Positions 27,626 to 58,740 of a DNA stretch of 64,000 bases are shown here, piece by piece (positions within the stretch are counted from its first letter, which is position 1; each line of letters opens with the position of its first letter). Origin of the DNA: Pseudomonadota bacterium (GTDB lineage: Bacteria; Pseudomonadota; Gammaproteobacteria; Pseudomonadales; JAUIET01); contig JBCCIP010000020.1 of assembly GCA_039111475.1 (NCBI GenBank), positions 6,593 through 70,592 on the forward strand. The letters are read 5' to 3'. The notes beneath the pieces were generated by a model, which ran no database searches, was not told the origin of the DNA, and saw only the letters and a program-made list of their open reading frames with translations. Position numbers and translations under genes: made by a program.

Positions 27626-28244
27626 ATTGCCCCTTAATCTCTGTCGGATTTTCTACTTTCACATATATGGCGTCTTTATCGAGACCTGTTTCCAGAAATT
27701 CATTACGCACATTCATTAGTCGGGCTATTGCTACTTTTCGACTAATCGTTTCAATTGGAGAGCGCTTGTTTTTACTCGCAGACATCACCAGCTCAAGATC
27801 TTCTGCGCCATGTTTACTGATGTTATTGGCAATAAAGTTCTTAACAATTTCCCTCGTTTCCTCAGTCAGCGTTATTGAATCCTTTCCGTAGAAAATGATC
27901 AGCGAGCTGCCATCTTGTTCAAAATCAACATCCTGTTCGCTGCCAGATTCTCTAAACTGCGCCTCTGTTTGACGAATCTCTTCCACCAAACCGGCCAATT
28001 GCGTCTTCAATGTGGAATTCTCTTCCTTCAAGCGATCAACGACTTGTTCGATAGGAATCTCGTCCACGTCTACTTCAACCACACCTTCTGCACTCACCTT
28101 GCTGGTGTAGGTGATAACGTGGAAGTAGAGCGCTGATGCGGTCACCAACACGAAGAACACAAACATAATCACAACAGCTGATAAAATATCTACAAACCCG
28201 GGCCAGGAATTCGCTGCTAGATCAGCCCCATCTTCTGAACTCAT
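27585..28244 (-). CDS. MotB/SiiA-like single-TM ion-channel subunit with periplasmic OmpA-like domain
   Basis: NSWPGFVDILSAVVIMFVFFVLV: a W-P-x-F-V-D TM motif carrying the candidate ion-binding Asp; short coiled coil; C-terminal RKVAIARLMNVRNEFLETG resembling a degenerate OmpA peptidoglycan-binding motif. Confidence 0.82.
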   Translation of the reverse strand: MSSEDGADLAANSWPGFVDILSAVVIMFVFFVLVTASALYFHVITYTSKVSAEGVVEVDVDEIPIEQVVDRLKEENSTLKTQLAGLVEEIRQTEAQFRESGSEQDVDFEQDGSSLIIFYGKDSITLTEETREIVKNFIANNISKHGAEDLELVMSASKNKRSPIETISRKVAIARLMNVRNEFLETGLDKDAIYVKVENPTEIKGQYDWAKLQFRKASK

Positions 28245-30053: not shown

Positions 30054-30233
30054 GAACCGCTTCCTGATGCACTGTTTCACTGGTACAAAGAATCATGTTG
30101 TCTTCTTTTTCGTATTTTTGTTTTTTTGTGACGACTGTCATAAGACTAGTAAATGATCCAGTCTTTATCTAATCAACTGAGCTATTTCGTTTTTTTTGTT
30201 TTTGTATTTCTGAACAAACTCTGGCCAGATTGA

Positions 30234-42800: not shown

Positions 42801-45800
42801 ACATTATCATCACCATCGCCAGTCAAAGTATCGTCAAAGATAGACCCGATTACATTTTGAATCTGGCTTAGCGTATCCGTACCACCATCACCGTCATTGC
42901 TGGTGAGGTTATTGGTCAGGTCAACCGTTACACCCGAGCCCGCGGTAATGTAATCGGCGGTGTTGTTACCTGCACCACCGATAATCGTGTCATCACCAGC
43001 GCCGCCGCGCAACACATCGTCACCTGCGGCCCCGTCCAGCTGGTTGTCCCCAACACTGCCAACAATAAAATCGTCATTGTCCGAACCGATCACATTTTCT
43101 ATGGAGCTCAGAGTATCGGTATCACCAAAGCCGTCGTCATTGGCAATATTGTTTTGCAGGTCAACATCGACCGCATTGTCGGAATTGGCATAACTGACGG
43201 TATCGTTACCGATACCCCCGATGATCTCGTCATCGCCTTCCATGCCACGAATCGTGTCATTACCGCCACCACCATCAAGCCGATTGTCAAATTCGTCGCC
43301 GATCAGAGTATCGTCACTGCCAGACCCTATGAGGCCTTCGATACTGATTAGCGTATCCACGCCGCCTGAGCCGTCATCACCAACAACGCCGCTTGAAAGA
43401 TCAATGGTGACCGCGCTGCCAGCCGCCGAATAATCGGCAGTGTCAAAATCAGCGCCACCGTCCAGTGTGTCCGAGCCACCATTACCGATCAATATGTCGT
43501 CGCCAGCGCGGCCTTCCAACACGTTGCCGTTGTTGTCTCCTTCGATACGGTCATTATTTGCAGAACCCCAAATGTTCTCTATGTTCTGCAAAACATCGGA
43601 GTCGCCGTCGCCATCATTGGCTGCGGCATTCAGACTCAGATTGACCACAATAGCATTCGCCGCACCCGTGTAATCAGCAACGTCTCCAGTACCGGTACCG
43701 CCGTCCAGGGTGTCGCTGCCACCTCTGCCGCGAAGTACGTCATTCGAATCACCACCAAGCAGGGTATTGGCGTTAGCATCCCCGCCCAGATCATCCGCAA
43801 ACGCCGAGCCCGTCAGGTGTTCTATGCTGACAAGAGTATCAACGCCACCGTCGCCGTCATCACTGGCACTGTTGCTGTTCAAGTCGGCAGTGACCCCTGC
43901 GCCTGCCTGCGAGTAGTCTGCGATGTCCTGGCCGATCCCACCATCCAGGGTGTCATTGCCACCGCGGCCACGCAGCGTGTCCGCCGCATTGCCACCTTCA
44001 ATGATATTGTCGTTGCCGTCGCCGGTTAAAGTGTCCGCAAAATCCGAACCGGTAAGGTTTTCAATTTCAAATAACTGATCCGAGCCGCCATCACCATCTA
44101 CGGAAGCTTGGTTGGAGGAAAGATCGACCACCACGGTGCTGGATGCGTTTGAGTAGTCCGCTGTGTCTATGCCGTTCCCACCGGTTAAAATATCGTTGCC
44201 CGCGCGGCCACTCAGTACATCAACGCCATCATCGCCACTAATGGCATTATCATTTCCATCGCCTTCGATCCGATCATCACCCTGCGACCCTGTGATATTT
44301 TCTACGCCGCTAATTGTTTGATTGTCAGTACCGTTAATACTAACTGTTGTGCTGGTCGAGCCGTTCAGAGTGACGTTAATGAAATTGCCCGCAGCAAACC
44401 CACTGTAGTCAATGCTGTCATCAGTACCCAGGCCACCTTGCACATCATCAGCGCCTAACGTAGCGATAAAAGAGTCATCGCCTTGGCCGCCCTGTAAAAC
44501 GTTCACTGCACCATCACCCTGGATGGTGTCATCATTGGCTGAGCCCAGAACGTTCTCGAACCCCAATAAAGTGTCAACACCGCCGTCACCGTCGTTGCTG
44601 GCAGTGTTTCCCGCCAGGTTGACATTGACTCCGGATACCGCGCCACTGTAATCAACGGTGTCAATGTCGGTTCCACCGTCCAAGGTGTCATTGCCTCCGC
44701 GACCCGCCAACAGATCATCGCCTGCCAGACCACGCAGCACGTTATCCAGTGCGTCACCTGTTAAGGTGTCGTTTCCAGACGTACCGGTTACATTCTCTAT
44801 GTTGCGCAAGGTGTCATTGCCATCACCATTGACGACAGCTGTTGAATTGGCCGCCCCGGCCAAGGTCACATTCACAAAATTCGCCGTCGTCAGGCTTGAG
44901 TAATCGATACTATCAGTACCTACTCCACCATCGATTGTGTCGGTATTGGAACTTGCAATAAACTGATCATCGCCGTCCTGACCCTGTAGAATATTGACGG
45001 CGTTGTCGCCACCGATGACATCGTTGCCATCCGTGCCAATAACGTTTTCGATATTGCGCGCAATGTCATCGTCACCGCCAGTCACCGTAACTGTTACGTC
45101 GTTACCGTCATCGAGATCAACGCTGATGCCGGTCACACCACTAAGCGATGAATAATCCAGCGTGTCGGTGTTGGTGCCACCATCCAGAACATCGGAGCCC
45201 GCACTAGCGGTCAATATGTCATTGCCTGCATTGCCCAACAGCTCATTGTCACTGCCGTCGCCGGCCAAAGTATCGTTAAACGCCGAGCCATGAACATTTT
45301 CAACGCCAAACAGCTGATCCGATGAGCCATCACCATCGCTGGTAGCCTGGTTACTGGCCAAGCTGACATTTACGTTGCTTGCCGCCGCTGAGTAATCAGC
45401 AGTGTCAACGCCGGCACCCCCGGTCAGGATATCGGCGCCTGCGCGACCACTGAGTACGTCATCGCCCGCGTCACCGCTCAGTTCATTGTCATTGCCGTCA
45501 CCTACAATGCGATCATCACCTTGCGAGCCCGTAACGTCTTCGATACCTCGAATAGTCTGGTTATCGGCATTGTTAACGTTAACCGTTGCATCGAGGTTGC
45601 CAGCCAGCGTTACATCAATGGCATTGCCAGCGGCAAACGCCGAGAAGTTAACTTCATCACTGGTCCCTAAACCGCCATCAACAATATCCGCTCCTAACGT
45701 CGCAATAAATTGGTCATCACCTTCTTGCCCGCGCAGAACATTGGTGTTGGCATCCCCTTCTATGACATCGTCATTGCTGGAACCGATGACGTTTTCAATT

Positions 45801-48800
45801 TCCTGGAGGGTATCGACGCCACCGTCACCATCATTCGCCGCCGCATTCGCAGCAAGGCTGACGTCCACGCCGGTGGTTGCTGCGCTGTAGTTTACGGAGT
45901 CAATTCCAACACCGCCGTCCAGCAAATCATTGCCACCGCGGCCGGATAACTCATCGTTACCTGCTGCTCCGCGCAGCTCATTGTCCAGACCGTCACCGAC
46001 CAGCGTGTCATCTCCGCTGGTGCCGGTCACATTTTCAATGTTGCGAATCGTGTCGTTGTCACCACCGTTGACGACAACGATGGCATCGGACGTTGTATCC
46101 AGTGTGACGCTGATGAAGTTAGCACTAAGCAAGCCAGAGTAATCCGCCGTGTCTGAGCCCAGACCACCGTCCAGTGTGTCAGTACCGGCACTGGCCAGGA
46201 ACGTGTCGTCTCCAGAACGGCCTTCCAGCAAGTTTATTGAGGCGTCGCCTCCGATGGTATCGTCACCGTCAGTACCTATTACATTTTCAATATTGCGTAC
46301 CTGGTCGTTGTCACCACCTGTCACTGTGACAGTAACTGTGTTGGTGCCGTCCAGATCGACATTGATAGAGGTTGCGCCTGCCAGGCTGGAGTAGTCCAGA
46401 GTATCGTTGTTGGCGCCACCATCCATGATGTCGGTGCCGGCACTGGCGCTGATCAGATCGTCGCCTGCGTTTCCTTCTAGCAGGTTGGCGCTGCTGTTAC
46501 CGCTGATGGTGTCATCAAAGTTGGAGCCGCGAATATTCTCGATATCGAACAACTGGTCCGAAGCACCATCGCCGTCGGCGCTGGCCTGGTTGCTGGCCAG
46601 GCTGACGGTGACGTTACCTGCCGCGCCGCTGTAGTCGGCCGTATCGGAACCCGACCCACCTCTCAGTATATCGTTGCCAGCGCGCCCAGCCAGGGTATCA
46701 TCGCCGGCAGAGCCGCCAAGCTCATTATCGTTACCGTCACCAAAGATGACATCATCGCCTTGCGACCCGGTCACATTTTCGATGCCGCGCAGCGTCTGGT
46801 TGTCGGCATTGTTGACGCTCACGGTCGCGTCGCTGCTGCCAGCCAGCGTGACATTGATCGCATTGGTCGCGGCGAGTGCCGAATAGTCTACGCCGTCGCC
46901 GTTGCCCACACCACCATCAATCAAATCCGCACCCAGAGTGCCGCCAAAGTTGTCGTCGCCATCGCGGCCTTCCAGTACGTTGGCACCTATATCGCCTTCA
47001 ATGGCATCGTCATTTGCCGAGCCAATAACGTTCTCAATATCTTGCAGGGTGTCAACGCCGCCGTCACCATCATCGCTCGCGATGTTGGATGCCAGGCTGA
47101 CATCAACCGCTGTGGTCGCCGCGGAGTAATCCACGGTGTCGTTGTCCGCACCACCGTCCAGCAAATCGTTGCCGCCGCGTCCAGACAATACATCGTCTCC
47201 GGCCGCGCCGCGCAGCTCATTGTCCAGGCCGTCGCCGACCAAGGTGTCATTACCGGTGGTGCCAGTGATGTTCTCTATGTTGCGAATGGTATCGTTACCA
47301 CCACCATTGACGACGACAATGGCGTCTGATGTGCTGTTCAGCGTCACATTGATGAAATTGGCGCTCACCAGTCCAGAATAATCAGCCGTATCCTCACCTA
47401 AACCGCCATCCAGCGTATCGGTGTTGTCACTGGCCAGGAAAGTATCATCCCCGGCACGGCCTTCTAACAGGTTGATCGATGAGTCACCGCCAATGGTATC
47501 GTCACCGGTGGTGCCGATAATATTCTCTATGTTCCGTACGCTGTCATCGTCATCACCAGTAATGCTGACAGTAACGGTATTTGCGCCATCCAGATCAATG
47601 TTGATCGCGGTTGCACCAACCAGACTGGAATAGTCCAACGTATCGGCGTTGCCGCCACCATCAATAACATCCGCACCACTGCTCGCAGTAAATGCGTCTT
47701 CGCCGCCGCGGCCTTCCAACAGGTTATCACTGCCATCGCCAGTGATGATGTCATCAAAGTTGGAGCCGCGAATATTCTCAATTTCAAACAGCTGATCAGA
47801 CGAACCGTCGCCGTCGGCACTGGCTTGATTGCTGGCCAGGTTGACTGTAATGGCACCCGCCGACAGCGAGTAGTCCGCGGTGTCGGTACCCGCACCACCC
47901 GTGATAATATCGTTTCCGGCGCGACCACTTAGGGTGTCGTCGCCCGCGTCACCGCTGATTTGGTTGTTGTTGCTGTCGCCGACAATCGTGTCGTCGCCTT
48001 GCGAACCGGTTACGTGTTCGATACCGCGCAGCGTCTGGTTGTCGGCATTGGCGACGTTGGCGATCGCATCAATGCCGCCGTTCAAGGTGACGTCTACAGA
48101 ATTGCTGGCTGCGAAGCCCGAGAAGTCCACCCTATCGCCTGACCCCGTGCCACCATCAACAATGTCTGCACCTAACGAGGCGTTAAACACATCATCGCCA
48201 TCGCGCCCTTCCAGCACGTTAGCATTGACATCACCTTGAATGATGTCGTCGTTAGCGGAGCCAACCACATTCTCTATTTCCTGCAGCGTGTCAGCACCAC
48301 CTTCACCGTCGTCGGTCGCAATGTTGCCCTGCAGATTGACATCAACGCCCGTCGCGGCGCTGCTGTAGTCGACCGTGTCAGTGTCCGTGCCACCAATCAA
48401 AGTGTCGTTGCCGCCGCGCCCGGACAGCACGTCATCCCCGGCGCCACCGCTTAAGGTATTGTCCAGTGCGTCTCCGATCAGGGTGTCATCCCCATCGGTA
48501 CCGATGACATTCTCAATACTGCGAATCGTATCGTTTCCATCGCCATTCACAACAACTACAGCGTCGGTCGTGCCATTCAGGGTGACATCAATAAAGTTGG
48601 CCGTGACCAGTCCGGAGTAGTCAACCGTATCATCACCCAGGCCGCCGTCCAATACATCGGTGTTAGAGCTGGCGAGAAAGGTATCGTTGCCCGCATTACC
48701 TTCCAGTACATTCAGTGATCCATCGCCACCAATAGTGTCATCACCAATGGTGCCTATAATATTTTCAATATTTCGGACCTGATTATTTGACCCGCCAGTA

Positions 48801-51800
48801 ATCTGCACTAGCACGGTATTAGCACCGTCCAAGTCCACATTAATTGCCGTTGCCGAGGCCAGCCCCGAATAGTCCAGCGTATCGGTGTTGGCGCCGCCGT
48901 CCACTATATCGGCTCCGCCGCTGGCGTTGAACAGATCGTTACCAATCCCGCCTTCCAGGAGGTTGTCGCTGGTGTTGCCGGTGATGGTGTCACTGAAGTT
49001 GGAGCCACGAATGTTCTCTATCTCGAACAACTGGTCTTGACCGCCATCGCCATCGACAGCAGCCTGACTGGCGCCCAGGTTTACAGTGACACTACTGGCA
49101 GCAGTGGAATAATCCGCAGTGTCTATGCCAGCTCCGCCGGTCAGAATGTCGTTGCCTGAACGCCCACTCAGGAAGTCATCACCCGCATCACCGCTGAGAT
49201 TATTGTTGCGGTTATCACCTTCAATACGATCATTGCCCTGCGAGCCAGTCACGTGTTCAACATTGCGGACTGTTTGATCATCCGCGCCGGTGATAAACAC
49301 TGTTGCATCACTGCTACTGTTCAGCGTGACATCAATCGAGTTGGCCGCTCCATTATTGCTGTAATCAATCGCATCGTTATCGCCCAGGCCGCCATCAACC
49401 GTATCGGCGCCCAGGCTACCCAGAAAGAGGTCTTCGCCCAGCCCACCTTCCAGCAGGTTAGCATTGCCATCGCCTTCGATAACGTCGTCGTTATCCGAAC
49501 CGATTACGTTCTCAATGGTTTGCAGTGTGTCCACACCGCCGTCACCATCATCGACCGCGGTATTATTCAGCAGGCTAACATTTACGTTGCCACTGGCCGC
49601 ACTGTAATCCACTGTATCGGTATCGGCACCGCCGATCAGGGTATCGTTGCCACCCCGACCGGCCAGCACATCATCGCCCGCCAAACCACTGAGACGATTA
49701 TCCTGGCTGTCGCCAATCAAAGTATCGTCACCCGTGGTGCCCGTGACATTTTCAATGCTGCGTAAGGTGTCGTTACCGTCGCCGTTAATCACAACAATGG
49801 CATCAGCGGCGTCATTCAGCGTTACGTTGACAAAGTTCGCTGTCGCCAGTGTGGAATAGTCAATTTCATCAACCCCAAGTCCACCGTCAATAGTATCAGT
49901 TCCGGAGCTAGCTCCAAATACGTCGTTGCCGCCTAAGCCAAGCAATACGTTAATTGCGCCATCACCACCGATGAAATCATTACCTGAGGTGCCAGTAACG
50001 TTTTCGATATTGCGCGCTGTATCGTTGTCACTGCCGGCAACTGTGACTGTGGCATCATTTCCCCCATCCAATGTCACATCGATGGCCGTCGCAGAGACTA
50101 ATCCTGAGTAATCGAGGGTGTCATTGCCGGCACCACCATCCATCACATCGGCGCCTTCGCTGCCAAGTAAGGTGTCTGCACCACCTTCGCCCAAAAGCGT
50201 ATCGTTGCCGCCGGCACCATTTAGGATGTCATCTCCGCCGCGGCCACTGAGCTGGTTGGCCTGCGCATCACCCGTCAGAGTGTCATTACCTGCGGTACCA
50301 ACGACATTCTCGATATTAATCAGAACGTCGTTATCGCCGCCGTTTACCACGGCCACGGCACCGCTAGCGCCATTCAAAGCGACGTTAATAAAATTAACCC
50401 CGATCAAACCGCTATAATCAGCCGTATCAATATCGGCACCACCATCCAATGTGTCGTTACCGGAGCTGGCAAAAAAAGTATCATCGCCGGCCGATCCGGT
50501 CAGCGCGTTATCGCCGCCGTCGCCGGTCATGCGATCGTCTCCCACCGTTCCGATCACGTTCTCAAAATTACGTATGGTGTCGTTGTCGCCTCCGTCGACC
50601 ACCACGGTTGCGTCACTGCTACCGTTTAGAACAACGTCTATGAAGTTCACACCACCCAGACCGGAGTAGTCGATGGTATCGCTGTCTGCACCTCCGTCCA
50701 AATTATCGGCGCCAAGCGAAGCATTGACGATGTCGTTGCCCCCCAAAGTGGATACTACATCCGCACCGGTCGAACCGCTGACTGCATCGGCCTGTTCAGT
50801 CGTAAAAAACTCCTCGAACTCGGAAAAGGTATCTACCGAGCCGTCGAATCCGTACGTGGCCTGGCTGTTTTGCAGATCTAAAGTAACACCCGCATCAGTC
50901 AGGTCGTCAAATCGTAACTGGTCAGCACCTGTCTCATTGCCGCCAAACAGTTGGTCTGAGCCTGCGCCACCGTAAATGACGTCGTCGCCATCTTCACCAC
51001 GAATCACGTTGGCACCCGTGTCACCACGAATATTGTCAGACTGGGAAGAGCCGGTGATATTCTCTATCCCGCGCAGTGTATCGGTTCCGCCGTCACCGTC
51101 ATTGCTGGCCTGTTCACTGGACAGATCCAGGGAGATGCCAGAAGAAGCCGATGAGTAGTCAGCGGTATCCAAACCAGTGCCACCGTCCAGCAAATCGTTG
51201 CCGATGTTGCCGCGCAGGGTGTCGTCACCCAAGCCGCCTAACAGATCGTCGCTCCCGTCGCCGCCTTCCAATACATCATTGCCGCTGAGGCCGCGCAGCT
51301 CATTATCCGCGTCGTCGCCGACCAAGGTGTCGTTACCACTGGTGCCAACCACATTTTCTATGTTGCGCAGAGTGTCGTCGTCTCCGCCAGTCACCGTCAC
51401 GACGGCCGCATTACCCAGGTCCAGGGTTACGGAAATAGACGTTACGCCTGTCAGGGTCGAGTAGTCAGCTGTATCCAGACCGACGCCACCATCAAATTCG
51501 TCATTGCCAGCGCTGGTATTGAACACATCGTCACCGCTCAGCGCAAACACCAGGTCATTGGCTGACGATGAGTTAATCAGGTCGTCTTGATTCGTCGTGA
51601 AGTAGCGCTCAAACTCGGAGAATGCGTCTGTGCTGTTGTCACCGGTATAACTTGCCGTGCCGCTTGTACCATTCAGATTCAGGGTGATGCCAACGCCACT
51701 CAGGTTGTCAAAACGCAAGTCATCGGTACCACCACCGCCAATTAGAGTGTCGCTGCCACCCCCACCGCTGATAACGTCGTTGCCAGCTCCGCCAATTAGT

Positions 51801-54800
51801 GTATTGCTGACCGCGTCACCGATAATACTGTCAGCGCCAGCAGTACCGGTAATATTCTCAACATTTCGAACAGTGTCATTGTCGCTACCCGCAACGCTGA
51901 CTACAACGTCATTTTCGCCGTTGAGGGTTACGCTGACAGAAGTCGCCCCAGCCAGCGTGGAGTAATCGATGGTGTCCAGACCGTCACCACCGTCCAGCGT
52001 ATCCACACCCTGACTGGCAATAAAACTGTCATTGCCACCCAAGGCAAAAACGCTGTCGGCCACCGCTGAGCCAATCAGGTTGTCGCCCTGGTTTGTCGCG
52101 TAGTAGATTTCGAAACCACTTAAGGTATCAGTGGTGGCGTCACCGGCAAAAAATGCGGTTCCTGCGCCTATATCCAGTGTTATTCCTGCACCGGTTAAAT
52201 CGTCAAATCGAACTTCGTCAAAGCCGGCGCCACCATCAAGGTTATCGGCACCACCGCCACCTCGAATCACATCATCACCACCCAGGCCGCTTAGTGTATT
52301 CCCCTGGGCATCACCTGTGATGTTATCGTTGTTGGCTGTACCTATAACGTTTTCGATATTGTTGAGAACATCTGAACCGCCGTCGCCGTCATTGATAGCG
52401 GCGTTTTGCGCCATGTCGATGAGCACGCCGGTACCCGCACCAGAGTAATCAACGGTATCAACTCCGGTGCCGCCATCGAAGGTATCGTCTCCCAGACCAC
52501 TGATCAGGTTGTCACTACCCGCGCCCCCGCGCAGTGTGTCATCACCACCGGCGCCTTCCAATAAGTCGTCGCCTTCGGCACCTTCCAGAATATTGTTTGC
52601 GTTATCGCCAATGATGACGTCATCGCCGGCCGAACCGATCACATTCTCGACCAGTCGCATCGTATCGTCATCGCCGCCGTCAACAGTCACGGTCGCGTCG
52701 CCGGCACTGTTCATCACGACATTGATGAAATTAATACCGATCAGCGTCGAGTAGTCGACCGTGTCAAGGCCGCCGCCGCCAATAAACAGGTCGCTACCGG
52801 CACTGGCCACAAACAGGTCATCGCCTAGCAAGCCATCTATGGTATCGGCTTGCGCGCTGCTAATAATGACATCTGCCTGGTTGGTACCCGCATAACTTTC
52901 GAAGTTAATGAAGGAATCGATGCTGCTGTCTACAGCGTAAGATGCAGTGCCGTTAATAAGGTCTAAGGTAATACCCAGAGACACCAGATCGTCAAAGCGC
53001 AATTCGTCGTTGCCGCTTCCACCGTCCAGTGCATCAGACCCTGCCCCACCGCGAATCAGGTCATCGCCAGCGCCACCGCTTAGTTGATTGGCGAGGAAGT
53101 CTCCACTTATCGCGTCATCGCCATCGGTACCTATTACGTTCTCAATGTTGCGAACAATATCGTCCTGGTCGCCTGTGACCTGAGCAACCACATCAAAGCT
53201 GCCATTCAAGGTGACATCGATGCTGGTCGCACCAGCGAACTGAGAATAATCTAAAGTATCGATGGCCGCACCGCCATCGTAGGTATTTGCACCGCTGCTG
53301 GCCACCAGCGTATCGAAGCCTTGACCGCCTTCCAGCAAGTCATCACCGGCACCACCAATCAGCGTATCGTCACCGGCAATCCCGCGTAGAATGTTGTCGT
53401 TGCCGTCACCGCGCAAAATATCATTGAATGTCGACCCAGTGACATTCTCTATGCTGTCGAAGGTGTCCAGACCGCCGTCACCGTCGGCAGAGTTGCCAAC
53501 CGACAGGTCAATGTCTACGGAGTTGGCTGCCAGCCCATAATCCGCTGTATCCGACCCCGCACCACCGATCAGCGTATCATTGCCGGCACGGCCTGATAGA
53601 AAGTCGTCACCGTCACCACCGGTTAGAACATTGGCATTTTCATCGCCTGCGATCCGGTCATCAAATGCTGATCCGGTCAGGTCTTCGATGCCTTCGAGTA
53701 TGTCGCTTCCACCATCACCGTCGTTATTCACTACTCCGGTAGACAAATCCAGATCTACGGCGGACGCGGCCTGACTGTAGTCCGCCGAGTCGCGACCTTC
53801 GCCGCCGACCAGAATATCATCGCCGCCTCGACCAGCCAGTACATCATCCCCAGCTCCACCTTCAAAGCGGTTATCGGATTCATCGCCGGTAATGGAATCA
53901 TCACCATCGGTACCAATGATATTTTCCACATTACGCAAAGCGTCGTTGGCACTGCCGTCCACGATAACGCTGGCATCCTGCGCACCTGCCAAGGTCGTAC
54001 TGATGGAGTTAGCGCTTTCCAGAACGGAGTAATCAATAGTGTCGCTATCGTCGCCGCCATCGACTGTATCCGATCCTTCACTGGCAAGGATCAGATCATC
54101 CCCGGCGTCACCGTTGACAGCGTCATCACCGTCACCGCCGTCCAACGTGTCGATACCGCCGCCACCGGAGACCGTGTCGTCACCCCCGGCGCCGAATAGA
54201 ATCTGATCATTGTCGTTGCCGGTGATTGTGTCGCCGAACTCCGAACCGCTAACGTCTTCTATGTTACGCAACCGATCCACCTCGGAACCCATCACCGCGG
54301 TCGTAAAGCCCTGATTATCAGCCACTTCTGATAAATCTATGCTGACAGCCTGGGCCGCTCGGCTGAAATCGATGACATCGCGTTCCCCGTCACCCCCGTC
54401 CAGCTCATCGTTGCCGCGGCCACCTGACAGTCGATCATTGCCGTCTCCGCCGAAAATCGCATTGTCGTCATCAGAACCATGAATGCGGTCGTCGAAGTCG
54501 GTGCCAACGATGTTCTCCACCCCTTGCAGGGTGTCGATATTGGATTCATCAATTGTCACGTTGTCTTCCACCAACGTGAGATCGGCATCGATTGCCTTGG
54601 TTTCCCCTGAGTAATCCGCGGTATCGGTGCCGCTGCCACCTATTAACAAGTCGTTGCCGCCGCGACCCGCCAGTAAATCATTGCCAGCGCCACCATCCAG
54701 CGTGTTATCCGCGTTGTTGCCTATCAGCCTGTCATCGGCCGTACCAGCCCGAATATTCTCTATCTCACGTACCCGATCTACCTGAAACTCAGGGCCATTA

Positions 54801-56356
54801 CGGTCCACGTTGATCTCGGCAAAATCCTGAATCAGCAGAGACAGATCGGCGTCGATCTCCACGCTGAGATCGGAATAATCCACCGTGTCGCTGCCGGAAC
54901 CACCCACCAGCGTATCATCACCTTCACCGCCTTGCAGTAAATCGTCGCCTTCAGCTCCATCGAGAAAGTCGTCCCCACGATTACCACGAATTACATCGTT
55001 GCCGGCACCGGCATTAACCACATCATCAGCAACCGACCCATCTATGGCGTCATTACCGGACCCGGTAAATACCCGGTTAGCGTTAGGGTTATTGGCTAAT
55101 ACCCAAACCTCATCACCACTCTGGTTGATGAAATTCAGGTCCTGTGGACCAAATACATTACGCACAGAAAACAGCTGATCATCTTGAGAGATTAACGCCG
55201 TTTCGGGTGGTGGCGTCAGCGGCACACCATCCGCGTCGGTGGTTTCTTCATTGAACTTTGAAGTCACCTTAAACTGCACAGTGAACTCGTCATCTGACGG
55301 AACCGGGTAGCTCAGATTCAGCTTTACCGCGCCCCGATCATCGGTTTCAAACTCCTCAATGGTCCACGTATTGCCGCTGAGCGTGCCTCCCTCTATCACA
55401 AAATCGTCGGGCAGGCCTGTTAATTCAATCTTGTCGATTTCGAAACCCACTGGGAATTTAGGTGAGATCTCAATCACCCTGGACATCAGGGTGTTGCCAA
55501 AGAAATCACTGTGATCGGCTTCTACAACAAGGTCTTCGGTGGCAGTGGAATAGTTCAGTACCTCAGTCGAAAACTGCGATTCGTTCGATGGGTCGAACGC
55601 CGAAGCTTCCGAGCCGCCGCCACCTTGTATCAGGCGGACTTCCTCGCTGCCAATCGTGGTGGTCGTTTCGGAACTCGCCAGTTGCAGCAGGTTCAAGTCA
55701 AATAGCGCAATGTCCTCAGGTTCAGGTGGCGCTTCGCTGGTGGAGAAGCTGATGGCACTACTCGAATCCTGCGCAACGGCCTTGGCTTCTTCTACAAACG
55801 TGCCTTCATCGTCGATCGAACGACGCGTTTGATCGCCTTCATCCTCGTATTCAAATGTATTCTCTGACTGGCTTTGCGATTGCTCTTGCTGAGCTTGAAC
55901 CGCTTGTTGCAACACAACAAGTACTTCTTGCTGCTGCTGGGCTTCCGCTTCGGCCTCGGCAGCTGCTTCCGCTTTGGCTTCTGAATCCGATTCGGCCTTT
56001 TCCAGAGATTCAAAAGTCTCGCGCATAATGCTCGAGATAGCGATGAAGTCTTGCACACTTAAATTACCCACCTCGCCAATCTTGGAAAGTAGGATATGCG
56101 TTTCAATTAACTCGTCATCAAAATAGATCTCTGGCGATTCGTCTTCTTCAAATAACAGCAACGCCAAACTATTGAAAACGACCTTGGCATTGTTGGTTTC
56201 ATTAGTAACGATAATGTCAGAATCAACAATATCAATCTTGGCGTTATCAATAGACACGTCACTGATATTGATTTTTGCCTTAGGCTCAACAGCAACGGAA
56301 TCTGTGCTGTCGGATTGGGCAAGACTGACATGGATACTAGCTACTTTCTGAACCAT
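33854..56356 (-). CDS. Giant (7500 aa) RTX Ca2+-binding repeat surface protein/adhesin, T1SS substrate
   Basis: Uninterrupted 22.5-kb ORF; hundreds of GGxGxDxL nonapeptides in ~80-aa blocks (DYS...VDL...DTL..IENVIG); no Sec signal; non-repetitive C-terminus; adjacent T1SS genes. Confidence 0.95.
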   Translation of the reverse strand: MVQKVASIHVSLAQSDSTDSVAVEPKAKINISDVSIDNAKIDIVDSDIIVTNETNNAKVVFNSLALLLFEEDESPEIYFDDELIETHILLSKIGEVGNLSVQDFIAISSIMRETFESLEKAESDSEAKAEAAAEAEAEAQQQQEVLVVLQQAVQAQQEQSQSQSENTFEYEDEGDQTRRSIDDEGTFVEEAKAVAQDSSSAISFSTSEAPPEPEDIALFDLNLLQLASSETTTTIGSEEVRLIQGGGGSEASAFDPSNESQFSTEVLNYSTATEDLVVEADHSDFFGNTLMSRVIEISPKFPVGFEIDKIELTGLPDDFVIEGGTLSGNTWTIEEFETDDRGAVKLNLSYPVPSDDEFTVQFKVTSKFNEETTDADGVPLTPPPETALISQDDQLFSVRNVFGPQDLNFINQSGDEVWVLANNPNANRVFTGSGNDAIDGSVADDVVNAGAGNDVIRGNRGDDFLDGAEGDDLLQGGEGDDTLVGGSGSDTVDYSDLSVEIDADLSLLIQDFAEINVDRNGPEFQVDRVREIENIRAGTADDRLIGNNADNTLDGGAGNDLLAGRGGNDLLIGGSGTDTADYSGETKAIDADLTLVEDNVTIDESNIDTLQGVENIVGTDFDDRIHGSDDDNAIFGGDGNDRLSGGRGNDELDGGDGERDVIDFSRAAQAVSIDLSEVADNQGFTTAVMGSEVDRLRNIEDVSGSEFGDTITGNDNDQILFGAGGDDTVSGGGGIDTLDGGDGDDAVNGDAGDDLILASEGSDTVDGGDDSDTIDYSVLESANSISTTLAGAQDASVIVDGSANDALRNVENIIGTDGDDSITGDESDNRFEGGAGDDVLAGRGGDDILVGGEGRDSADYSQAASAVDLDLSTGVVNNDGDGGSDILEGIEDLTGSAFDDRIAGDENANVLTGGDGDDFLSGRAGNDTLIGGAGSDTADYGLAANSVDIDLSVGNSADGDGGLDTFDSIENVTGSTFNDILRGDGNDNILRGIAGDDTLIGGAGDDLLEGGQGFDTLVASSGANTYDGGAAIDTLDYSQFAGATSIDVTLNGSFDVVAQVTGDQDDIVRNIENVIGTDGDDAISGDFLANQLSGGAGDDLIRGGAGSDALDGGSGNDELRFDDLVSLGITLDLINGTASYAVDSSIDSFINFESYAGTNQADVIISSAQADTIDGLLGDDLFVASAGSDLFIGGGGLDTVDYSTLIGINFINVVMNSAGDATVTVDGGDDDTMRLVENVIGSAGDDVIIGDNANNILEGAEGDDLLEGAGGDDTLRGGAGSDNLISGLGDDTFDGGTGVDTVDYSGAGTGVLIDMAQNAAINDGDGGSDVLNNIENVIGTANNDNITGDAQGNTLSGLGGDDVIRGGGGADNLDGGAGFDEVRFDDLTGAGITLDIGAGTAFFAGDATTDTLSGFEIYYATNQGDNLIGSAVADSVFALGGNDSFIASQGVDTLDGGDGLDTIDYSTLAGATSVSVTLNGENDVVVSVAGSDNDTVRNVENITGTAGADSIIGDAVSNTLIGGAGNDVISGGGGSDTLIGGGGTDDLRFDNLSGVGITLNLNGTSGTASYTGDNSTDAFSEFERYFTTNQDDLINSSSANDLVFALSGDDVFNTSAGNDEFDGGVGLDTADYSTLTGVTSISVTLDLGNAAVVTVTGGDDDTLRNIENVVGTSGNDTLVGDDADNELRGLSGNDVLEGGDGSDDLLGGLGDDTLRGNIGNDLLDGGTGLDTADYSSASSGISLDLSSEQASNDGDGGTDTLRGIENITGSSQSDNIRGDTGANVIRGEDGDDVIYGGAGSDQLFGGNETGADQLRFDDLTDAGVTLDLQNSQATYGFDGSVDTFSEFEEFFTTEQADAVSGSTGADVVSTLGGNDIVNASLGADNLDGGADSDTIDYSGLGGVNFIDVVLNGSSDATVVVDGGDNDTIRNFENVIGTVGDDRMTGDGGDNALTGSAGDDTFFASSGNDTLDGGADIDTADYSGLIGVNFINVALNGASGAVAVVNGGDNDVLINIENVVGTAGNDTLTGDAQANQLSGRGGDDILNGAGGNDTLLGEGGADTLLGSEGADVMDGGAGNDTLDYSGLVSATAIDVTLDGGNDATVTVAGSDNDTARNIENVTGTSGNDFIGGDGAINVLLGLGGNDVFGASSGTDTIDGGLGVDEIDYSTLATANFVNVTLNDAADAIVVINGDGNDTLRSIENVTGTTGDDTLIGDSQDNRLSGLAGDDVLAGRGGNDTLIGGADTDTVDYSAASGNVNVSLLNNTAVDDGDGGVDTLQTIENVIGSDNDDVIEGDGNANLLEGGLGEDLFLGSLGADTVDGGLGDNDAIDYSNNGAANSIDVTLNSSSDATVFITGADDQTVRNVEHVTGSQGNDRIEGDNRNNNLSGDAGDDFLSGRSGNDILTGGAGIDTADYSTAASSVTVNLGASQAAVDGDGGQDQLFEIENIRGSNFSDTITGNTSDNLLEGGIGNDLFNASGGADIVDGGANTDTLDYSGLASATAINVDLDGANTVLVQITGGSNNQVRNIENIIGTIGDDTIGGDGSLNVLEGNAGNDTFLASSNTDVLDGGLGDDTVDYSGLVTANFIDVTLNGTTDAVVVVNGDGNDTIRSIENVIGTDGDDTLIGDALDNTLSGGAGDDVLSGRGGNDTLIGGTDTDTVDYSSAATGVDVNLQGNIATDDGEGGADTLQEIENVVGSANDDIIQGDVNANVLEGRDGDDVFNASLGADIVDGGTGSGDRVDFSGFAASNSVDVTLNGGIDAIANVANADNQTLRGIEHVTGSQGDDTIVGDSNNNQISGDAGDDTLSGRAGNDIITGGAGTDTADYSLSAGAITVNLASNQASADGDGSSDQLFEIENIRGSNFDDIITGDGSDNLLEGRGGEDAFTASSGADVIDGGGNADTLDYSSLVGATAINIDLDGANTVTVSITGDDDDSVRNIENIIGTTGDDTIGGDSSINLLEGRAGDDTFLASDNTDTLDGGLGEDTADYSGLVSANFINVTLNSTSDAIVVVNGGGNDTIRNIENITGTTGNDTLVGDGLDNELRGAAGDDVLSGRGGNDLLDGGADNDTVDYSAATTAVDVSLASNIASDDGDGGVDTLQDIENVIGSANDDAIEGDIGANVLEGRDGDDNFGGTLGADLIDGGVGNGDGVDYSALAATNAINVTLAGSSDATVSVNNADNQTLRGIENVTGSQGDDVIFGDGNDNELGGSAGDDTLAGRAGNDILRGGSGSDTADYSGAAGNVTVSLASNQASADGDGASDQLFDIENIRGSNFDDTISGNSSANLLEGNAGDDLISASAGTDIMDGGANNDTLDYSSLAGATSINVDLDGTNTVTVTVTGGDNDQVRNIENVIGTDGDDTIGGDASINLLEGRSGDDTFLASAGTDTLDGGLGSDTADYSGLLSANFISVTLDTTSDAIVVVNGGDNDTIRNIENVTGTSGDDTLVGDGLDNELRGAAGNDELSGRGGNDLLDGGVGIDSVNYSAATTGVDVSLAANAAANDGDGGVDTLQEIENVIGSSNDDVIEGDANTNVLRGQEGDDQFIATLGADIVDGGLGTSDEVNFSAFAAGNAIDVTLAGNLDATVNVNNADNQTIRGIEDVTGSQGDDRIVGDGNDNELSGDAGDDVLSGRAGADILTGGAGVDTADYSAAASNVNVSLASNQATSDGDGSSDQLFGVENVHGSAFNDTLAGDGSDNELLGNAGNDILTASAGSDVLDGGTNTDTLDYSSLSGVTGISVDLDDGNDVTVTVTGGDDDIARNIENVIGTDGNDVIGGDNAVNILQGQDGDDQFIASSNTDTIDGGVGTDSIDYSSLTTANFVNVTLAGAANSTAVVNGDGNDTLRNIENVTGTSGNDTLTGDALDNVLRGLAGDDLLAGRGGNDTLDGGTDIDTVDYSGAVSGVNVNLAGNTASNDGDGGVDTLLGFENVLGSANDDTIQGDGAVNVLQGGQGDDSFIATLGADDVQGGLGTDDSIDYSGFAAGNFINVTLNGSTSTTVSINGTDNQTISGVENITGSQGDDRIEGDGNDNAISGDDGVDVLSGRAGNDILTGGNGIDTADYSNASSTVVVDLSSNQASVDGDGGSDQLFEIENLTGSDFADTLTGDGNDNIIEGGNAADTLRGRGGNDTLDGGIGQDIADYSQAGAGVTADLNSNSASDDGDGGVDTLVSIEHLTGSAFADDLGGDANANTLLGGDSNDVLRGRGGSDTLDGGTGTGDVADYTGAANAIVVNLSLNAAANDGDGDSDVLQNIENIWGSANNDRIEGDNNGNVLEGRAGDDILIGNGGSDTLDGGADFDTADYSAAGSAVTIDLSSGVVGDDGSGGVDTLISIEGLIGSGSDDTLIGDEFDNRLDGGGGNDTIRGMEGDDEIIGGIGNDTVSYANSDNAVDVDLQNNIANDDGFGDTDTLSSIENVIGSDNDDFIVGSVGDNQLDGAAGDDVLRGGAGDDTIIGGAGNNTADYITAGSGVTVDLTNNLTSNDGDGGTDTLSQIQNVIGSIFDDTLTGDGDDNVLEGRNRDDVLRGRGGDDTLDGGTGTDTADYSLAAAGVTADIGANSASDDGDGGSDTFVSIENISGSSGVDDLSGDGAANTLFGDDGNDILRGRGGADTIDGGNNVDTVDYSGAASGINVDLQNNVAANDGDGASDTLNNIENVIGSVQSDIIVGSTAANVLSGGLLNDTLSGLAGADTLDGGGGIDTADYSQAAAGITVDLAANQASNDGDGSVDTLTSIENIIGSDFSDDISGDGNVNLLQGGDDDDFFRGSTNDDIIEGGFGSDTADYSGMAGSPSIDVTLRGGVDATVVVSGGNGTDTLRSVENIIATAGDDTLRGDGNDNTLSGGDGDDVIWGGGGSDTLDGGGHNTGDQLRFDDLTGVGIDLNLTNNTAFYSADSSTDNFINFEEFYLTNQGDTIIGSTGIDVVFSLGGDDSFQASAGSDDFDGGTDSDTIDYSTLGGVNFINVTLDGANAATVTVNGGDDDTIRNIENVIGTSGVDTITGDGESNTIQGQGGDDIISGGAGNDFLEGNAGNDLFFGSAGQNTFDGGNDTDTIDYSLQAGIASVAVQLNGSGSSAVIVAGGDNDLALNIENVIGTDGDDTLIGDGSDNEFQGGAGDDLLSGRSGADLLIGGADNDTVDYSGEVGINFIDLTLNGGSDVTVTVDGGANDTIREIENVIGTAGADIIRGDSLVNVLEGDDGNDTLVGGAGADVLDGGDDIDTVDYSQEVGINFIDVQLNGGSDATVIIDGADNDTIRAIENVIGTAGNDTISGDSQANNIDGQGGDDVIRGGGSNDTLDGGTGTNTLSYTDSGLGITTDMNVLSGGFFSVTVGSDTDLAANFRDVIGSAGADNITGDTQDNVIEGRVGTDILDGGAGNDTLRGGSEADTLIGGAGNDILDGGDTGDTLDGGIGDDTYLGGDGWDQLIASDGADTIDGGSATDTLDYSSQSSANFINVTLNGGTDATVTVDGDQDDTVRNVERIRGTAGNDTIFGDGANNYFWGGAGDDTMSGGSNADNRLWGEAGDDLFLGSAGTNRFDGGADTDTVDYSAQAGINFINVALDGSGSASVTVDGANNDIVLNIENVIATAGNDTVHGDDSANVITTLGGDDELSGGAGVDILDGGDDTDTANYEEAAAGIVVDLSADAATDDGDGASDTLTSIENIIGSDFDDIITGGVEANDLDGGDGSDYFFSSAGVDVIEGDNGSDTLDYSLQAGVTSISVNLNSGIQTTVTVNGSDNDLVRNIENIVGTAGNDVIRGDGNANSFTAGAGDDILRGEGGDDVFDGGAGINTLEYNDRVDRVVTDMSALTGGAFTVNVGGSETDTASNIRDIIGSQGNDDITGDAQDNTLRGDLGSDTLRGGDGNDLLQGESGNDVLEGGAGDDTLEGGSSNWDTLRGGAGVDTMDGGSGTRDAVDYRFESGINFIDIDLNGGSVSTVAVDGGDNDTIVNIERVFATEGNDIIRGHSQQNFFYGQGGDDTFFAAGGDDEIYGGGGNDTLDYSDLSSGLSVDMTAVAGGLFTLDIGGGAEGDRADSIEILRTTTGADTVQTDANVILLETLGGNDVVDLNSNDATVNAGDGADDVDLFGTDAIVDAGSGNDIVRAYGGGADVTLGTENDTLWAYSSGNTGTGDDGNDFLGNWGVYNNTFEGNAGADTFESRGGGSVFDGGADTDTIRYNNTGAGITVNLNESGDTTIVVNGQTNDTIRNIENVQGSDGADSIEGNSLANVLNGGTGNDTIIAGTGLDTYIGSSGTDTLDYSGFTAGNFIDVTLNGGSNVTVTVNGGDNHTANSFENIIGSQGNDTIGGDTASNNLQGGAGDDLILGSTSNDTLDGGSGTGDVLDYQNITGNGIDINLGAGFVTQFFGFTDFFSNFEQYLLTDFDDIVRGSSDADVVESLDGDDVFEASAGNDVLDAGLGGDTIDYSNLGGITGISATLNGANAIIVSVSGGDNDSIRNFENITGSGSDDSLTGDSLANILDGHSGNDVIDGGAGDDILFGGDDDDLFIAGAGTDTIEGGSDSDTVDYSGLVGANFINVTLNGAASTTVTVDGGDNDTLSDVENIVGTNGADTITGDANDNTLSGLGSADIIVGGGGADTIDGGAGGDNVSGGSGADVFFGGSGADTIDGGADNDTLDYSLHPSAGAISVTLNGTSVSTVTISGDSNDSIQSIENVIGTNGDDTIHGDGTNNTLIGGQGNDTLSGRVGNDVLDGGEDTDTIDYSTAAGGVTVNLGSGVVSDDGDGGSDTLLSIENFIGSASADIVSGSGASNVINTGSGADSITASAGADNYDGGADADSLDYSGLAGVSSISVSLNGSSSVFVSVNGGTDDTVRNIESITGTSGDDTLDGDAQQNTLLGGDGADTISGGSGADTLDGGNNLDTLDYSAAVGGVDVNLDTNTVLDDGFGFSDTISNFEFLSGSNFADTLTGNTGGNILIGNDGIDTIDGLAGNDLISGGVGNDIIDGGADTDTITYAGAAFGVTVNLSSNSASNDGDGGSDTLNNIENVTGSANNDNITGDSNNNTIDGGNGNDTLAGRGGLDTLNGGAGTNTVTYVNAAGSVTADLLAGGASNDGDLSTDTFSNIQNLTGSANADTLSGDNNANTINGGLGNDVLAGRGGVDDLQGGGGDDTISYSGAASGVTVNMVSGVTTNDGDGASDTFSDIDHVTGSNGNDNITGDAGGNQLVGGNGQDTLIGNGGNDTLNGGANADTIMGGVGNDVIDGGGDNDLVDYSLAANGIVVDLSAALASNRALNDGDGGQDTLSNIENVFGSDNNDDITGDSNNNIIDGGQGDDTINFSGGLDILDGGLNNDTLDYSSAGAITGGVLSAGAVDGVGGTLNVGTNSAIVDNFENFALSANNDTLTFDMDAIGSLNSVDANGGAADRMIITDSLAGDDLTDAGIDGVDLASLFTDVEELDFSGTGVNGGDTFDIGNSEISSITGSGNSLTIDIDSGTMNLTDFNALDQSGATVSGDSTVGNTRTIDWDNGVQLVINMT
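43916..50111 (-). repeat. Five tandem 1239-bp (413-aa, 5-module) higher-order repeats inside the giant gene
   Basis: DQLF(E/D/G)(I/V)EN codons recur at about 44058, 45297, 46536, 47775 and 49014. Antisense ORF ends recur at 44903, 46142, 47381, 48620 and 49859. All are spaced 1239 bp. Confidence 0.9.
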
Positions 56357-56601: not shown

Positions 56602-58740
56602 CTAAGAAACCTCTGAATAAGCATGCAATTCCATGGACGCGCGAGCGACCCCCGCCGCCTTCAGCATCCCATAGAAGCTATCAAGAAAGTGAGAGATAGA
56701 GTAATTCGCCAGCATGTAATTCTGCGCAGACTGAACAGTTTTCATTCGCGTCGTTTCACTATCCAGTATCGCTAACAAACTCGCACACCAATCATCTGGG
56801 GTCGCGACCAATGTGCCACGATCTGTGCCAATCACTCCTCGATAAACTGAATGATTACTAGCCACTACGCTGGCACCTACTGCGCTGTACTCCAGCCACT
56901 TGGTGCTTGACTTATAATCGTTGAATCGTATGTTGCTCAATGGGCACAAACCAACAGACCAACGCCTGCTGGCCAGAATGGAAAGAAATTGATCATATTT
57001 CCAGTCGGGCGGAATAAGCCTTACCCGATCGCCAAACCTGTCCAACTGCGGTGGCTTAGGAATCGTACCCAGTAGCTCAAACTCAGCGTCGGGGCGATGC
57101 TCGAGTACACTCACAATTCCATCAAGTGCCACAGCTAAGTCTCGCTCATGCCCAAAGCCCATGTAACCAAAGCGCATGGGACGCGATTGATCATAGCTTT
57201 GAATAACCTGGCCCGGGCACAGTCTTTGTGCCGTATAAACAGGGGTGCTGAAACCCAGAATTTTTAGGCTGTCACTTAACGACGCGGTCGCGGAATAAAT
57301 TAAATCTGCCTTGCGCAGCTGATAGAGCAAGCGTTGCTGGCGCACAGGATCAGAATAGTATTTATGTTTTTCCTGCCCAATATCAACGGGCACGTCCAAT
57401 AAATTGTCATCGAGACAGCAGACCACCCGAGCACCGAGCTCATGTGCTCGATTGAGAATACCCTGTGCATACATTCCAGTGTAGCGACAGAAAATAACCA
57501 CATCCGGCTGCAACCGTGTCAACACTCTGTCTGCGTAGGTTCTAAACACCAGTTTACCCGCACCCCTGACCCTACCCACAGCACCAATGTCTGTCTCAGT
57601 CAGTACCTCGCATTCAATCTCACCGGTATCAACCTTGTCGCGCAATGGATGAGTAAACGCCAGCTGCAAGGTAGGCATAGTTGGAGAGTTAGCGACCAAC
57701 AACATTTTCAATGGCGATCGTTTTGCAGTATGGGTTGCTGCGCGCTGGGTGGCACGGTATTCGTTGGTGGCTATCTGTTTCAGAGGCATATATGCATTCT
57801 GCATGAAACGCTCAAATGCGCCATGGTCAGCGTTTGCTGCAATTGATGCTTGATAACTGCGCTGCAAACGCTCTCGTTTTCGATTAGCCAGAATCACCCG
57901 TTTATGCGGGACGTAACCAGCTTGTCGATCAATGGCCTGGTATTTTTTTCGGTCCAGCTCTGACAATGGGTCAAATTGAGGGCCTGACATTTCATCCAGC
58001 TGTTGCAGCAACGAGGGCCTCGCGTATTCCAGCTGAATTTCCCTCTCGATACTCTCCCGGCTTATTGCGCCTTCACGCAGCATTTCATACAGCGTGGCGA
58101 GCCATAAATGGCCGTGCCGATTGGCTGCAGAAACCCAGGGCTGAATGTGCATATCCGTGTAATGCAGATTGCAGGTAGAACTGTCCCAATGCTCCAGACT
58201 GTTCCATTCTGGCGGCACGGCGTATCCCAGCTCGTGTTCCTTGAGAATGCACAGTTCACTCATTAGTTCCTGATAAGTGTATTGGCCATCAAGCCCAGCA
58301 ATAATTGTCTCGGCATTCCAGTTCAGACGTCCGCAATCAAGTACGCTAACCGCTGTTTGTTTAGGCCGTGATTTCATTCCAAACAACGCCTTAGCACCGC
58401 CCTGCGCAACAACATCACTTTGAATTAACATCTTGTGTCCATTCATTGGAATGTCCCACAGGTCGCCAATATCGGAAAATACCAGCATGTCAGCGTCCAT
58501 ATAGATCGCCTTGCCTTGATGACCGTTGAGTTCTGGAATCGCGAATCGACTGAAGGAAAAACCAGTGCGCGCGAGCTGACGTTTATCTTTGGGCTCAGGC
58601 AACTCCACATGTTCAAGACTGTGAACATCGAATCGGCGTCGAGTGTGTTTTGCAATACTGTATTCCAGTACTTGCAAACCGATTCGCTGAGAGCGGTCAG
58701 TGCCTACGTAGACTTGAATCGTTGCTGTGTTCTGCCTCAT
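56602..58740 (-). CDS. Two-domain glycosyltransferase (GT8-like GT-A domain + GT4-like GT-B domain)
   Basis: N-terminal TGFSFSRF, YMDADM (DxD), PEWNSLE, LHYTDM..QPW; C-terminal LDDNL, FGYMG, FNDYKSSTKWLEYSAVG. Confidence 0.82.
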   Translation of the reverse strand: MRQNTATIQVYVGTDRSQRIGLQVLEYSIAKHTRRRFDVHSLEHVELPEPKDKRQLARTGFSFSRFAIPELNGHQGKAIYMDADMLVFSDIGDLWDIPMNGHKMLIQSDVVAQGGAKALFGMKSRPKQTAVSVLDCGRLNWNAETIIAGLDGQYTYQELMSELCILKEHELGYAVPPEWNSLEHWDSSTCNLHYTDMHIQPWVSAANRHGHLWLATLYEMLREGAISRESIEREIQLEYARPSLLQQLDEMSGPQFDPLSELDRKKYQAIDRQAGYVPHKRVILANRKRERLQRSYQASIAANADHGAFERFMQNAYMPLKQIATNEYRATQRAATHTAKRSPLKMLLVANSPTMPTLQLAFTHPLRDKVDTGEIECEVLTETDIGAVGRVRGAGKLVFRTYADRVLTRLQPDVVIFCRYTGMYAQGILNRAHELGARVVCCLDDNLLDVPVDIGQEKHKYYSDPVRQQRLLYQLRKADLIYSATASLSDSLKILGFSTPVYTAQRLCPGQVIQSYDQSRPMRFGYMGFGHERDLAVALDGIVSVLEHRPDAEFELLGTIPKPPQLDRFGDRVRLIPPDWKYDQFLSILASRRWSVGLCPLSNIRFNDYKSSTKWLEYSAVGASVVASNHSVYRGVIGTDRGTLVATPDDWCASLLAILDSETTRMKTVQSAQNYMLANYSISHFLDSFYGMLKAAGVARASMELHAYSEVS

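Follow-up and report, generated by a model that had tools for sequence, protein, structure and literature searches.

The window analysed here is a 64,000-nucleotide stretch of contig JBCCIP010000020.1 (assembly GCA_039111475.1) from a bacterium of the Pseudomonadales. It carries on its minus strand the gene of a giant RTX protein of 7,500 amino acids (aa), downstream of which lie five genes of the same strand, encoding an ABC transporter, an HlyD adaptor, two membrane proteins of 609 and 219 aa, and TolC. This report concerns the N-terminal part of the RTX protein, hereafter the head. A preliminary description, made from the sequence alone, had likened it to the N-terminus of Salmonella SiiE, and set it apart from the LapA-type cleavable retention module. 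We find that the first 430 or so residues make up a conserved head, and that the proteins which share it are a distinct family of type I substrates with RTX repeats only. The RTX gene and the parts of its product are the following:

33854..56356, minus strand: gene of the giant RTX protein, 7,500 aa (open reading frame, ORF, from the ATG at 56356)
56012..56356, minus strand: N-terminal beta domain, residues 1 to ~115 (AlphaFold2 model; conservation in 55 protein clusters)
55733..56011, minus strand: acidic E/A/Q-rich linker, residues ~116-208, predicted to be partly helical, variable in sequence (AlphaFold2 model, identity, linker statistics)
55064..55732, minus strand: second conserved block of the head, residues ~209-431, up to the start of the RTX repeats (alignment, tblastn)
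34475..55063, minus strand: RTX nonapeptide repeat body, residues 432-7294 (Pfam and GxGxD motifs)
33857..34474, minus strand: C-terminal 206 residues, without RTX motifs (motif scan)

The RTX protein contains 17% glycine, 15% aspartate and no cysteine. HemolysinCabind, the RTX nonapeptide repeat, is the sole Pfam family found on it (32 and 34 stretches in two overlapping halves of 4,000 aa), and 134 GxGxD motifs run from residue 432 to residue 7294, leaving the first 431 and the last 206 residues as its only long non-RTX parts. The nonapeptide repeats, together with the adjoining ABC, HlyD-family and TolC genes, mark the protein as an RTX type I substrate, and its last 206 residues are presumed to be the putative signal region for the type I secretion system (T1SS). 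G+C content is 0.53-0.55 over positions 36001-56000, in the RTX gene, compared with 0.48-0.52 elsewhere in the window; this fits the Gly/Asp-rich coding of the gene and need not imply a foreign origin.

A phmmer search with residues 1-200 over 1.84 billion representative proteins gave 55 matches at E<=1e-3, of which 32 were at E<=1e-10. All of them are N-terminal, starting at residues 1-40 of proteins that range from 99 to 6,106 aa. Such conservation is far beyond chance, and the head is a real, conserved unit. The segment initially singled out, 55860-56356 on the minus strand, covers residues 1-166, with the E/A/Q-rich stretch at about 125-158 of the translation; the sequence strings quoted for it are indeed present in the protein. 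Its proposed extent of about 170 residues, however, proved too short. In the alignment, conserved motifs (DxEG, PPEP...LLQ, GGGGSE...FDP and TGLP) continue past the variable acidic stretch until the first RTX repeats near residue 430, and with tblastn, residues 1-500 align over about 1,300-1,500 nucleotides in 27 of 29 related loci, the other two ending at the edge of the locus. Mean identity to 21 relatives is 35% over residues 1-115, falls to 20% over both 116-165 and 166-205, and reaches 41% over 206-250. Across 42 relatives the linker has a median length of 91 aa and a median net charge of -10, as raw values in which a few rows, the window's own included, are mis-anchored. It thus appears to keep its length and charge while its sequence varies.

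The nearest ortholog, P0002, is 84% identical over residues 1-200 (phmmer), whereas the longest BLAST alignment between the two whole proteins is 45% identical. It was also the only protein returned by a region-mode search for relatives among proteins of 4,125-13,125 aa. No Pfam or NCBIfam model matches residues 1-300 at E<=0.01, no PDB chain matches the head by sequence at E<=10, and a plasmid collection contained no match to the head or to the MotA-like protein described below. In a scan of one genome per species we found 29 head loci in 28 genomes, all of them environmental bins, labelled as Pseudomonadales, Gammaproteobacteria, Granulosicoccus, Alphaproteobacteria, Micavibrio, Rickettsiales, one Flavobacteriales and one Verrucomicrobiales. 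Its carriers are all marine bacteria. Among 400 genomes sampled evenly from the class, four carry the head, one of these matches being weak.

It had been suggested at the outset that this N-terminus takes interchangeable passengers. The relatives give a different picture: in all 26 long relatives scanned, HemolysinCabind is the only family present, and the precomputed Pfam entries of further relatives show the same. Judged from these domain annotations, the head takes no interchangeable passengers within the detectable family.

The structure of the head was predicted with AlphaFold2, using an alignment of 23 rows. Residues 11-90 have a block-mean confidence (predicted local distance difference test, pLDDT) of 93-97, the ends one of 83-94, and the model shows eight to nine strands and short helices. 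Residues 1-100 are therefore confidently predicted to fold as a beta domain, and the beta-rich segment first read from the sequence is borne out by the model. The reading of the following segment as an E/A/Q-rich helix forming a coiled coil fared less well. Its composition is as described; the predicted helices (residues 101-121 and 141-161), however, have a pLDDT of 46-68, and residues 122-138 fall below 50. In the model, the linker is thus an acidic, low-confidence spacer, partly helical and partly disordered, rather than a demonstrated coiled coil.

Comparisons of the predicted fold gave a limited answer. Foldseek found no match to the head model in the PDB at E<=1e-3. A VIA fold search with residues 1-99 returned TcdA residues 1694-1803 (Z 8.6, root-mean-square deviation 2.9, 93 residues aligned), followed by TcdB (Z 8.0), the end of CyaA RTX block V (Z 8.0) and RTX regions of lipases, with the reservation that VIA Z-scores near 8 are common for models without a clear relative. 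No adhesin retention domain was among the 50 VIA matches listed, an absence that carries no evidential weight. These matches suggest a beta-roll-like or sandwich arrangement, no more.

Such a fold brings up the main rival to a retention function, namely that the beta domain serves the RTX beta-roll merely as a cap at its N-terminus or as a folding unit, on a protein that is fully released, the rest of the operon being simply co-inherited. The RTX and beta-rich toxin regions among the best fold matches (Z 8.0-8.6) fit a cap, as do the RTX-only make-up of all the relatives and the narrow phylogenetic range of the family (4 of 400 class genomes). Yet an acidic linker of about 90 aa and a non-RTX block of about 220 aa lie between the beta domain and the first RTX repeat, and because of this separation the domain cannot cap the roll directly. 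Moreover, the head is far more conserved than the repeats, as the comparison with P0002 illustrates (84% over residues 1-200, against 45% in the longest whole-protein alignment). We therefore hold the structural cap to be a doubtful explanation.

A LapA-type cleavable retention module was also considered for the head, and rejected: there is no match to the corresponding models or profiles, no LapG site, and neither lapD nor lapG in the window. The BapA_N family (PF22783) matches none of 23 relatives, even at E<=10; used as a profile, it had a match in one of 401 genomes and in none of the controls. The retention_LapA model (NF033682), which scores above its cut-off in 28 of 400 genomes from the same class, hits in this genome only an unrelated 405-aa ORF, at 24.9 bits, and nothing on the RTX gene. 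When the head was aligned by hhalign with 24 genuine LapA modules, the probability was 0.2% (E 0.3), compared with 0.5% and 0.2% for the unrelated controls A4 and A6. The motif [TAP]AA[GV], which we take to be the dialanine motif cleaved by LapG, is absent from residues 1-300 of the RTX protein. It occurs in 4 of 56 relatives, and four of its five occurrences are at residues 9-20, before the beta domain. The distinction from LapA drawn in the preliminary description is thus upheld by hidden Markov models, hhalign and the motif scan; a LapA or BapA retention match with a LapG site was looked for and not found, and Pfam scans of the other ORFs confirm that lapD and lapG are missing from the window.

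Could the head nevertheless be a LapA/BapA-type module that has diverged past recognition? It sits in the same place, at the N-terminal end of a giant T1SS substrate, and the genome does contain a single BTLCP (Peptidase_C93) gene, whose product would be the releasing protease. In addition, the nearest ESM-Atlas cluster, with a score of 0.89, which is below the lead threshold of 0.9, has BapA_N on 18% of its members. Against this, the head matches neither retention_LapA nor BapA_N, its hhalign probability is at the level of the controls, and the dialanine motif is lacking in residues 1-300, rare in relatives, and mostly found before the beta domain. The BTLCP gene, for its part, is not on the contig of the RTX gene: it lies on contig C6 at 20123-20488 (9648-10382 of the extracted locus L002), where its neighbours encode a YkuD L,D-transpeptidase and a Slam-like protein of the outer membrane, and neither an adhesin nor LapD is close by. 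LapD_MoxY_N was not found in the genome either, but the control of that search matched nowhere and the genome is 95.6% complete, so that absence is unproven. On balance, we consider a diverged LapA module very improbable.

The genes downstream of the RTX gene are, in the order of transcription:

31589..33724, minus strand: LssB-like T1SS ABC transporter with an N-terminal C39-like domain (TIGR03375 5.3e-207, 689.4 bits, cut-off 693.1; Peptidase_C39 8.3e-7)
30234..31592, minus strand: HlyD-family periplasmic adaptor (TIGR01843 1.9e-104)
28251..30080, minus strand: MotA/ZorA-like membrane protein, 609 aa (NCBIfam ZorA_2 7.2e-5; PDB profile matches)
27585..28244, minus strand: MotB/SiiA-like protein, 219 aa (alignment; PDB profile; PRK09039 'peptidoglycan-binding protein' 7.3e-7)
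26159..27625, minus strand: TolC-family outer membrane channel, 488 aa (OEP 6.7e-42; TIGR01844 2.5e-38)

The two membrane proteins resemble the subunits of ion-driven stators, all of the stator-type matches of both being below the family cut-offs. The 609-aa protein, called MotA-like here, matches ZorA_2 with 22 bits for a cut-off of 100, and a profile of its transmembrane (TM) part reaches ZorA-type chains in the PDB (8vvn_C at E=0.011, 8qyh_A at 0.058). It has stator-type TM motifs and a C-terminal coiled-coil tail of about 330 aa, which matches only coiled coils in the PDB, and its total length varies from 456 to 611 aa across 16 relatives. The tail is reminiscent of the long tail of ZorA. 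In the 219-aa MotB-like protein, Asp19, at the start of the single TM helix, is invariant in 16 of 16 sequences; a helical linker follows, then a degenerate OmpA-like C-terminal domain with the invariant arginines R175 and R180. Its profile matches the OmpA-like Omp38 in the PDB at E=0.011, and the protein has 307 relatives at E<=0.01, the named ones being nearly all 'hypothetical protein'; one record names a cultured strain of Granulosicoccus. Among shorter relatives of the pair, a full Pfam OmpA domain is present in the three B subunits scanned, and a weak match to MotA_ExbB (4.7e-4) in one of three A subunits. Taken together, these features make the pair look like a proton channel of the MotAB/ZorAB type. 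No ZorC/D-like genes were detected beside it by Pfam and NCBIfam scans of the window.

We then have to ask how closely the head and this pair are linked. A MotA-like homolog was found in 22 of the 28 head-bearing genomes; in the other six the MotA-like profile found nothing, and in each of these the giant ORF is cut off by the end of the contig or locus. All 18 loci fetched have the MotA-like and MotB-like genes side by side, and in 17 of them TolC comes next. Two arrangements occur, the pair lying either after the ABC-adaptor genes downstream of the giant gene, as in the window, or beside the 5' end of the giant gene; in 9 of 29 loci it is within 10 kb upstream of the head. In the class sample of 400 genomes, a MotA-like match at E<=1e-60 occurs in three, and these coincide with the three firm carriers of the head (G000, G288 and G090). 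One of them, G288, encodes the same set at 24-31% identity: a MotA-like protein, two paralogs of the MotB-like protein, TolC, and an RTX protein of 2,026 aa that carries the same head; its two MotB-like genes (260 and 283 aa, both with the motif WPxxVDI) are consecutive, between the MotA-like gene and TolC (L034, 6904-8539). The expectation that the head would travel with a SiiAB-like pair in a T1SS locus is therefore supported by co-occurrence, in 22 of 28 genomes and 18 of 18 loci.

The converse does not hold. The MotA-like family is present in 50 of the 400 class genomes (including G067, flagged unpublished), about 25 of them with strong matches. We considered it as a general marker of T1SS loci and rejected it: in none of 14 further loci was the head, or any T1SS gene, present within about 10 kb. 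Twelve of these loci encode shorter MotA-like forms of about 250-440 aa (one ORF being 630 aa), and two have weaker matches of about 670 aa.

A few observations on these and related loci may be recorded. The orphan loci (L055-L068) are two-gene pairs, in which a MotB-like gene follows the MotA-like gene in 11 of 14 cases; their surroundings vary and include no T1SS genes. The TolC homolog of several gammaproteobacterial bins (L038, L040, L051 and L052) is 680-1,075 aa long, compared with 488 aa in the window, which suggests that the longer homologs carry an added domain. Finally, two Rickettsiales-labelled bins have an ORF of about 300 aa between TolC and the RTX gene (L044, 9443-10372; L045, 9647-10555), with, by eye, an N-terminal hydrophobic, signal-like stretch, and for which no counterpart was seen in the window.

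How, then, might the head and the pair work together? Type I substrates leave the cell C-terminus first, and the head would therefore be the last part of the protein to enter the conduit formed by the ABC transporter, the adaptor and TolC. From the conservation of the head, its position, its predicted fold, its lack of LapA features and its linkage to the stator-like pair, we infer that it may act as a LapG-independent retention, or anchor, module. The folded beta domain would remain on the side of the periplasm or the cell, with the acidic linker in the channel and the RTX filament tethered outside. The proton-channel pair, presumably anchored to peptidoglycan, would use the proton-motive force to set the balance between retention and release. 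This scheme is that of the published model for SiiAB and the N-terminus of SiiE, in which proton flux through SiiAB holds the SiiE N-terminal domain in the channel. SiiAB is reported to conduct protons, and the way in which it draws on the proton-motive force in holding or releasing SiiE is described in the published work as unresolved. To the proposal that the head serves retention without LapG, in a T1SS assisted by a stator, we give a probability of roughly one half.

The same genes allow a different role, in which the head would be a cytoplasmic docking or hold-back element that times or gates export, rather than an anchor for the protein outside. The C39-like N-terminal domain of the ABC transporter and the coiled-coil tail of about 330 aa on the MotA-like protein would both offer surfaces for docking, although contact of the head with either is purely hypothetical. 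C39-like domains, moreover, bind unfolded RTX regions rather than N-terminal domains, which counts against such a role, and the peptidoglycan-binding part of the MotB-like protein points to a mechanical role in the periplasm. In its favour, complexes between SiiF and SiiB are reported from Salmonella. We regard docking as decidedly improbable.

Several points weigh against the retention head. The linker, which would have to occupy the channel, has helices predicted at a pLDDT of only 46-68, and at 20% identity it is the least conserved segment of the head. The fold matches are middling, and the beta-roll-like cap that they suggest fits a purely structural role equally well. What connects the head to the secretion parts is the presence and arrangement of genes, and the co-occurrence of the head with the pair could reflect a single, vertically inherited operon. 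The siiABCDEF gene order of Salmonella differs from that of the window. The phmmer search with residues 1-200 returned RTX-family proteins and nothing SiiE-like, and a search of the PDB with the MotB-like profile, up to E<=10, brought up no SiiA chain. Lastly, the passenger in the window is RTX-only, whereas SiiE is described as having BIg repeats and no RTX repeats.

The window shows that a T1SS with a stator-like pair and a head specific to its substrate is a conserved module in many environmental bacteria. If the retention head is correct, giant T1SS proteins would be tethered in a second way that does not depend on LapG, set apart from the LapA paradigm. The family provides comparative material for the retention mechanism outside a pathogen, in the form of invariant residues, linker length and two gene orders. 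A bolder version can be formulated, which we think unlikely: the head would be the mechanical coupling point of a new surface machine, in which a 5:2 stator unit, driven by protons and bearing a ZorA-like tail, is set in the T1SS conduit and holds, tensions, turns or releases a giant RTX filament. Such a machine would be common among uncultured marine bacteria, in bins of Pseudomonadales, Granulosicoccus and Alphaproteobacteria and in those labelled Micavibrio, and Salmonella SiiABE would be a derived form in which the RTX repeats were swapped for BIg repeats.

Upstream of the RTX gene, the window contains genes of other kinds, the first of them being:

56602..58740, minus strand: glycosyltransferase of 712 aa (GT8 plus GT1-like), immediately upstream of the RTX gene (Pfam)

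Among the 29 loci, only the three closest relatives (L005-L007) have this glycosyltransferase upstream of the RTX gene. The RTX protein may be modified by it, and it is possibly associated with the system. Further upstream, at 58954-62847 on the minus strand, is a selenium-related cluster that encodes an oxidoreductase/SelD fusion (TIGR04369-like, below the cut-off), MnmH, which is the tRNA 2-selenouridine synthase, and a YciW/CMD-like protein.

Three known systems can be compared with the locus. LapA, MpIBP and BapA modules are presumed to tether their proteins through the outer-membrane channel. Like them, the RTX protein has an N-terminal globular domain, followed by a linker, on a giant, adhesin-like T1SS protein; in contrast to them, it has no dialanine site, and a stator-like pair stands at the locus in place of the LapG/LapD partners. 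The 5:2 stators ZorAB, MotAB and ExbBD offer a second comparison. The MotA-like protein has a TM part closest to the ZorA type, followed by a long tail, and the MotB-like protein has the TM aspartate and the OmpA-like domain. The pair differs from these stators by its position in a T1SS operon, rather than among flagellar, Ton or Zorya genes. One paper of 2025 gives SiiAB as the sole type I secretion example among the 5:2 motors that it lists, and the listings of a literature search contain no description of such a system outside Salmonella.

The third comparison is that with SiiE itself, a substrate of the SPI-4 T1SS in Salmonella enterica. Since phmmer over 1.84 billion proteins gave RTX-family matches only, close similarity of the head to SiiE is excluded as far as sequence is concerned. 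By eye, the SiiE string as quoted in the preliminary description would line up with the strand motif that is best conserved in the family. In published work, residues 1-116 of SiiE, UniProt accession Q8ZKG6, are predicted to be beta, 117-172 to form a coiled coil of eight heptads, and 173-236 to be beta or disordered, and HHpred is reported to give no high-likelihood structural homologs for residues 1-240. Deletions in the coiled coil are reported to lower retention, and deletions in the beta-sheet part to raise or prolong it. In SiiA, which is reported to have 210 aa, Asp13 is followed by a TM helix at 14-38 and a linker, and the OmpA-like domain is described as requiring Arg162 and Arg167.

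Set beside these descriptions, the window differs in some respects. Its head is conserved up to about residue 430, and its linker is acidic and of low complexity, without eight clear heptads. Its MotA-like gene precedes the MotB-like gene, the pair is inserted between adaptor and TolC, and the MotA-like protein has a long, ZorA-like tail. The resemblances concern layout and partners. In both, a giant T1SS substrate begins with a non-repeat region of about 240 aa, and by the published boundaries the divisions of the head (beta over ~1-115, acidic and predicted to be partly helical over ~116-165, beta or disordered over ~166-245) run parallel to those of SiiE (1-116, 117-172 and 173-236); no LapG/LapD module is present in the window. 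In both, a T1SS locus includes MotB-like and MotA-like genes, and the MotB-like protein is of a size similar to SiiA, with a TM aspartate and two arginines five residues apart in the OmpA-like domain (R175/R180, compared with Arg162/Arg167). Should SiiE turn out to be homologous, the family would supply the alignment depth that its N-terminus has lacked. The chances seem even to us that the head works like the N-terminal region of SiiE, by a likeness of layout and partners.

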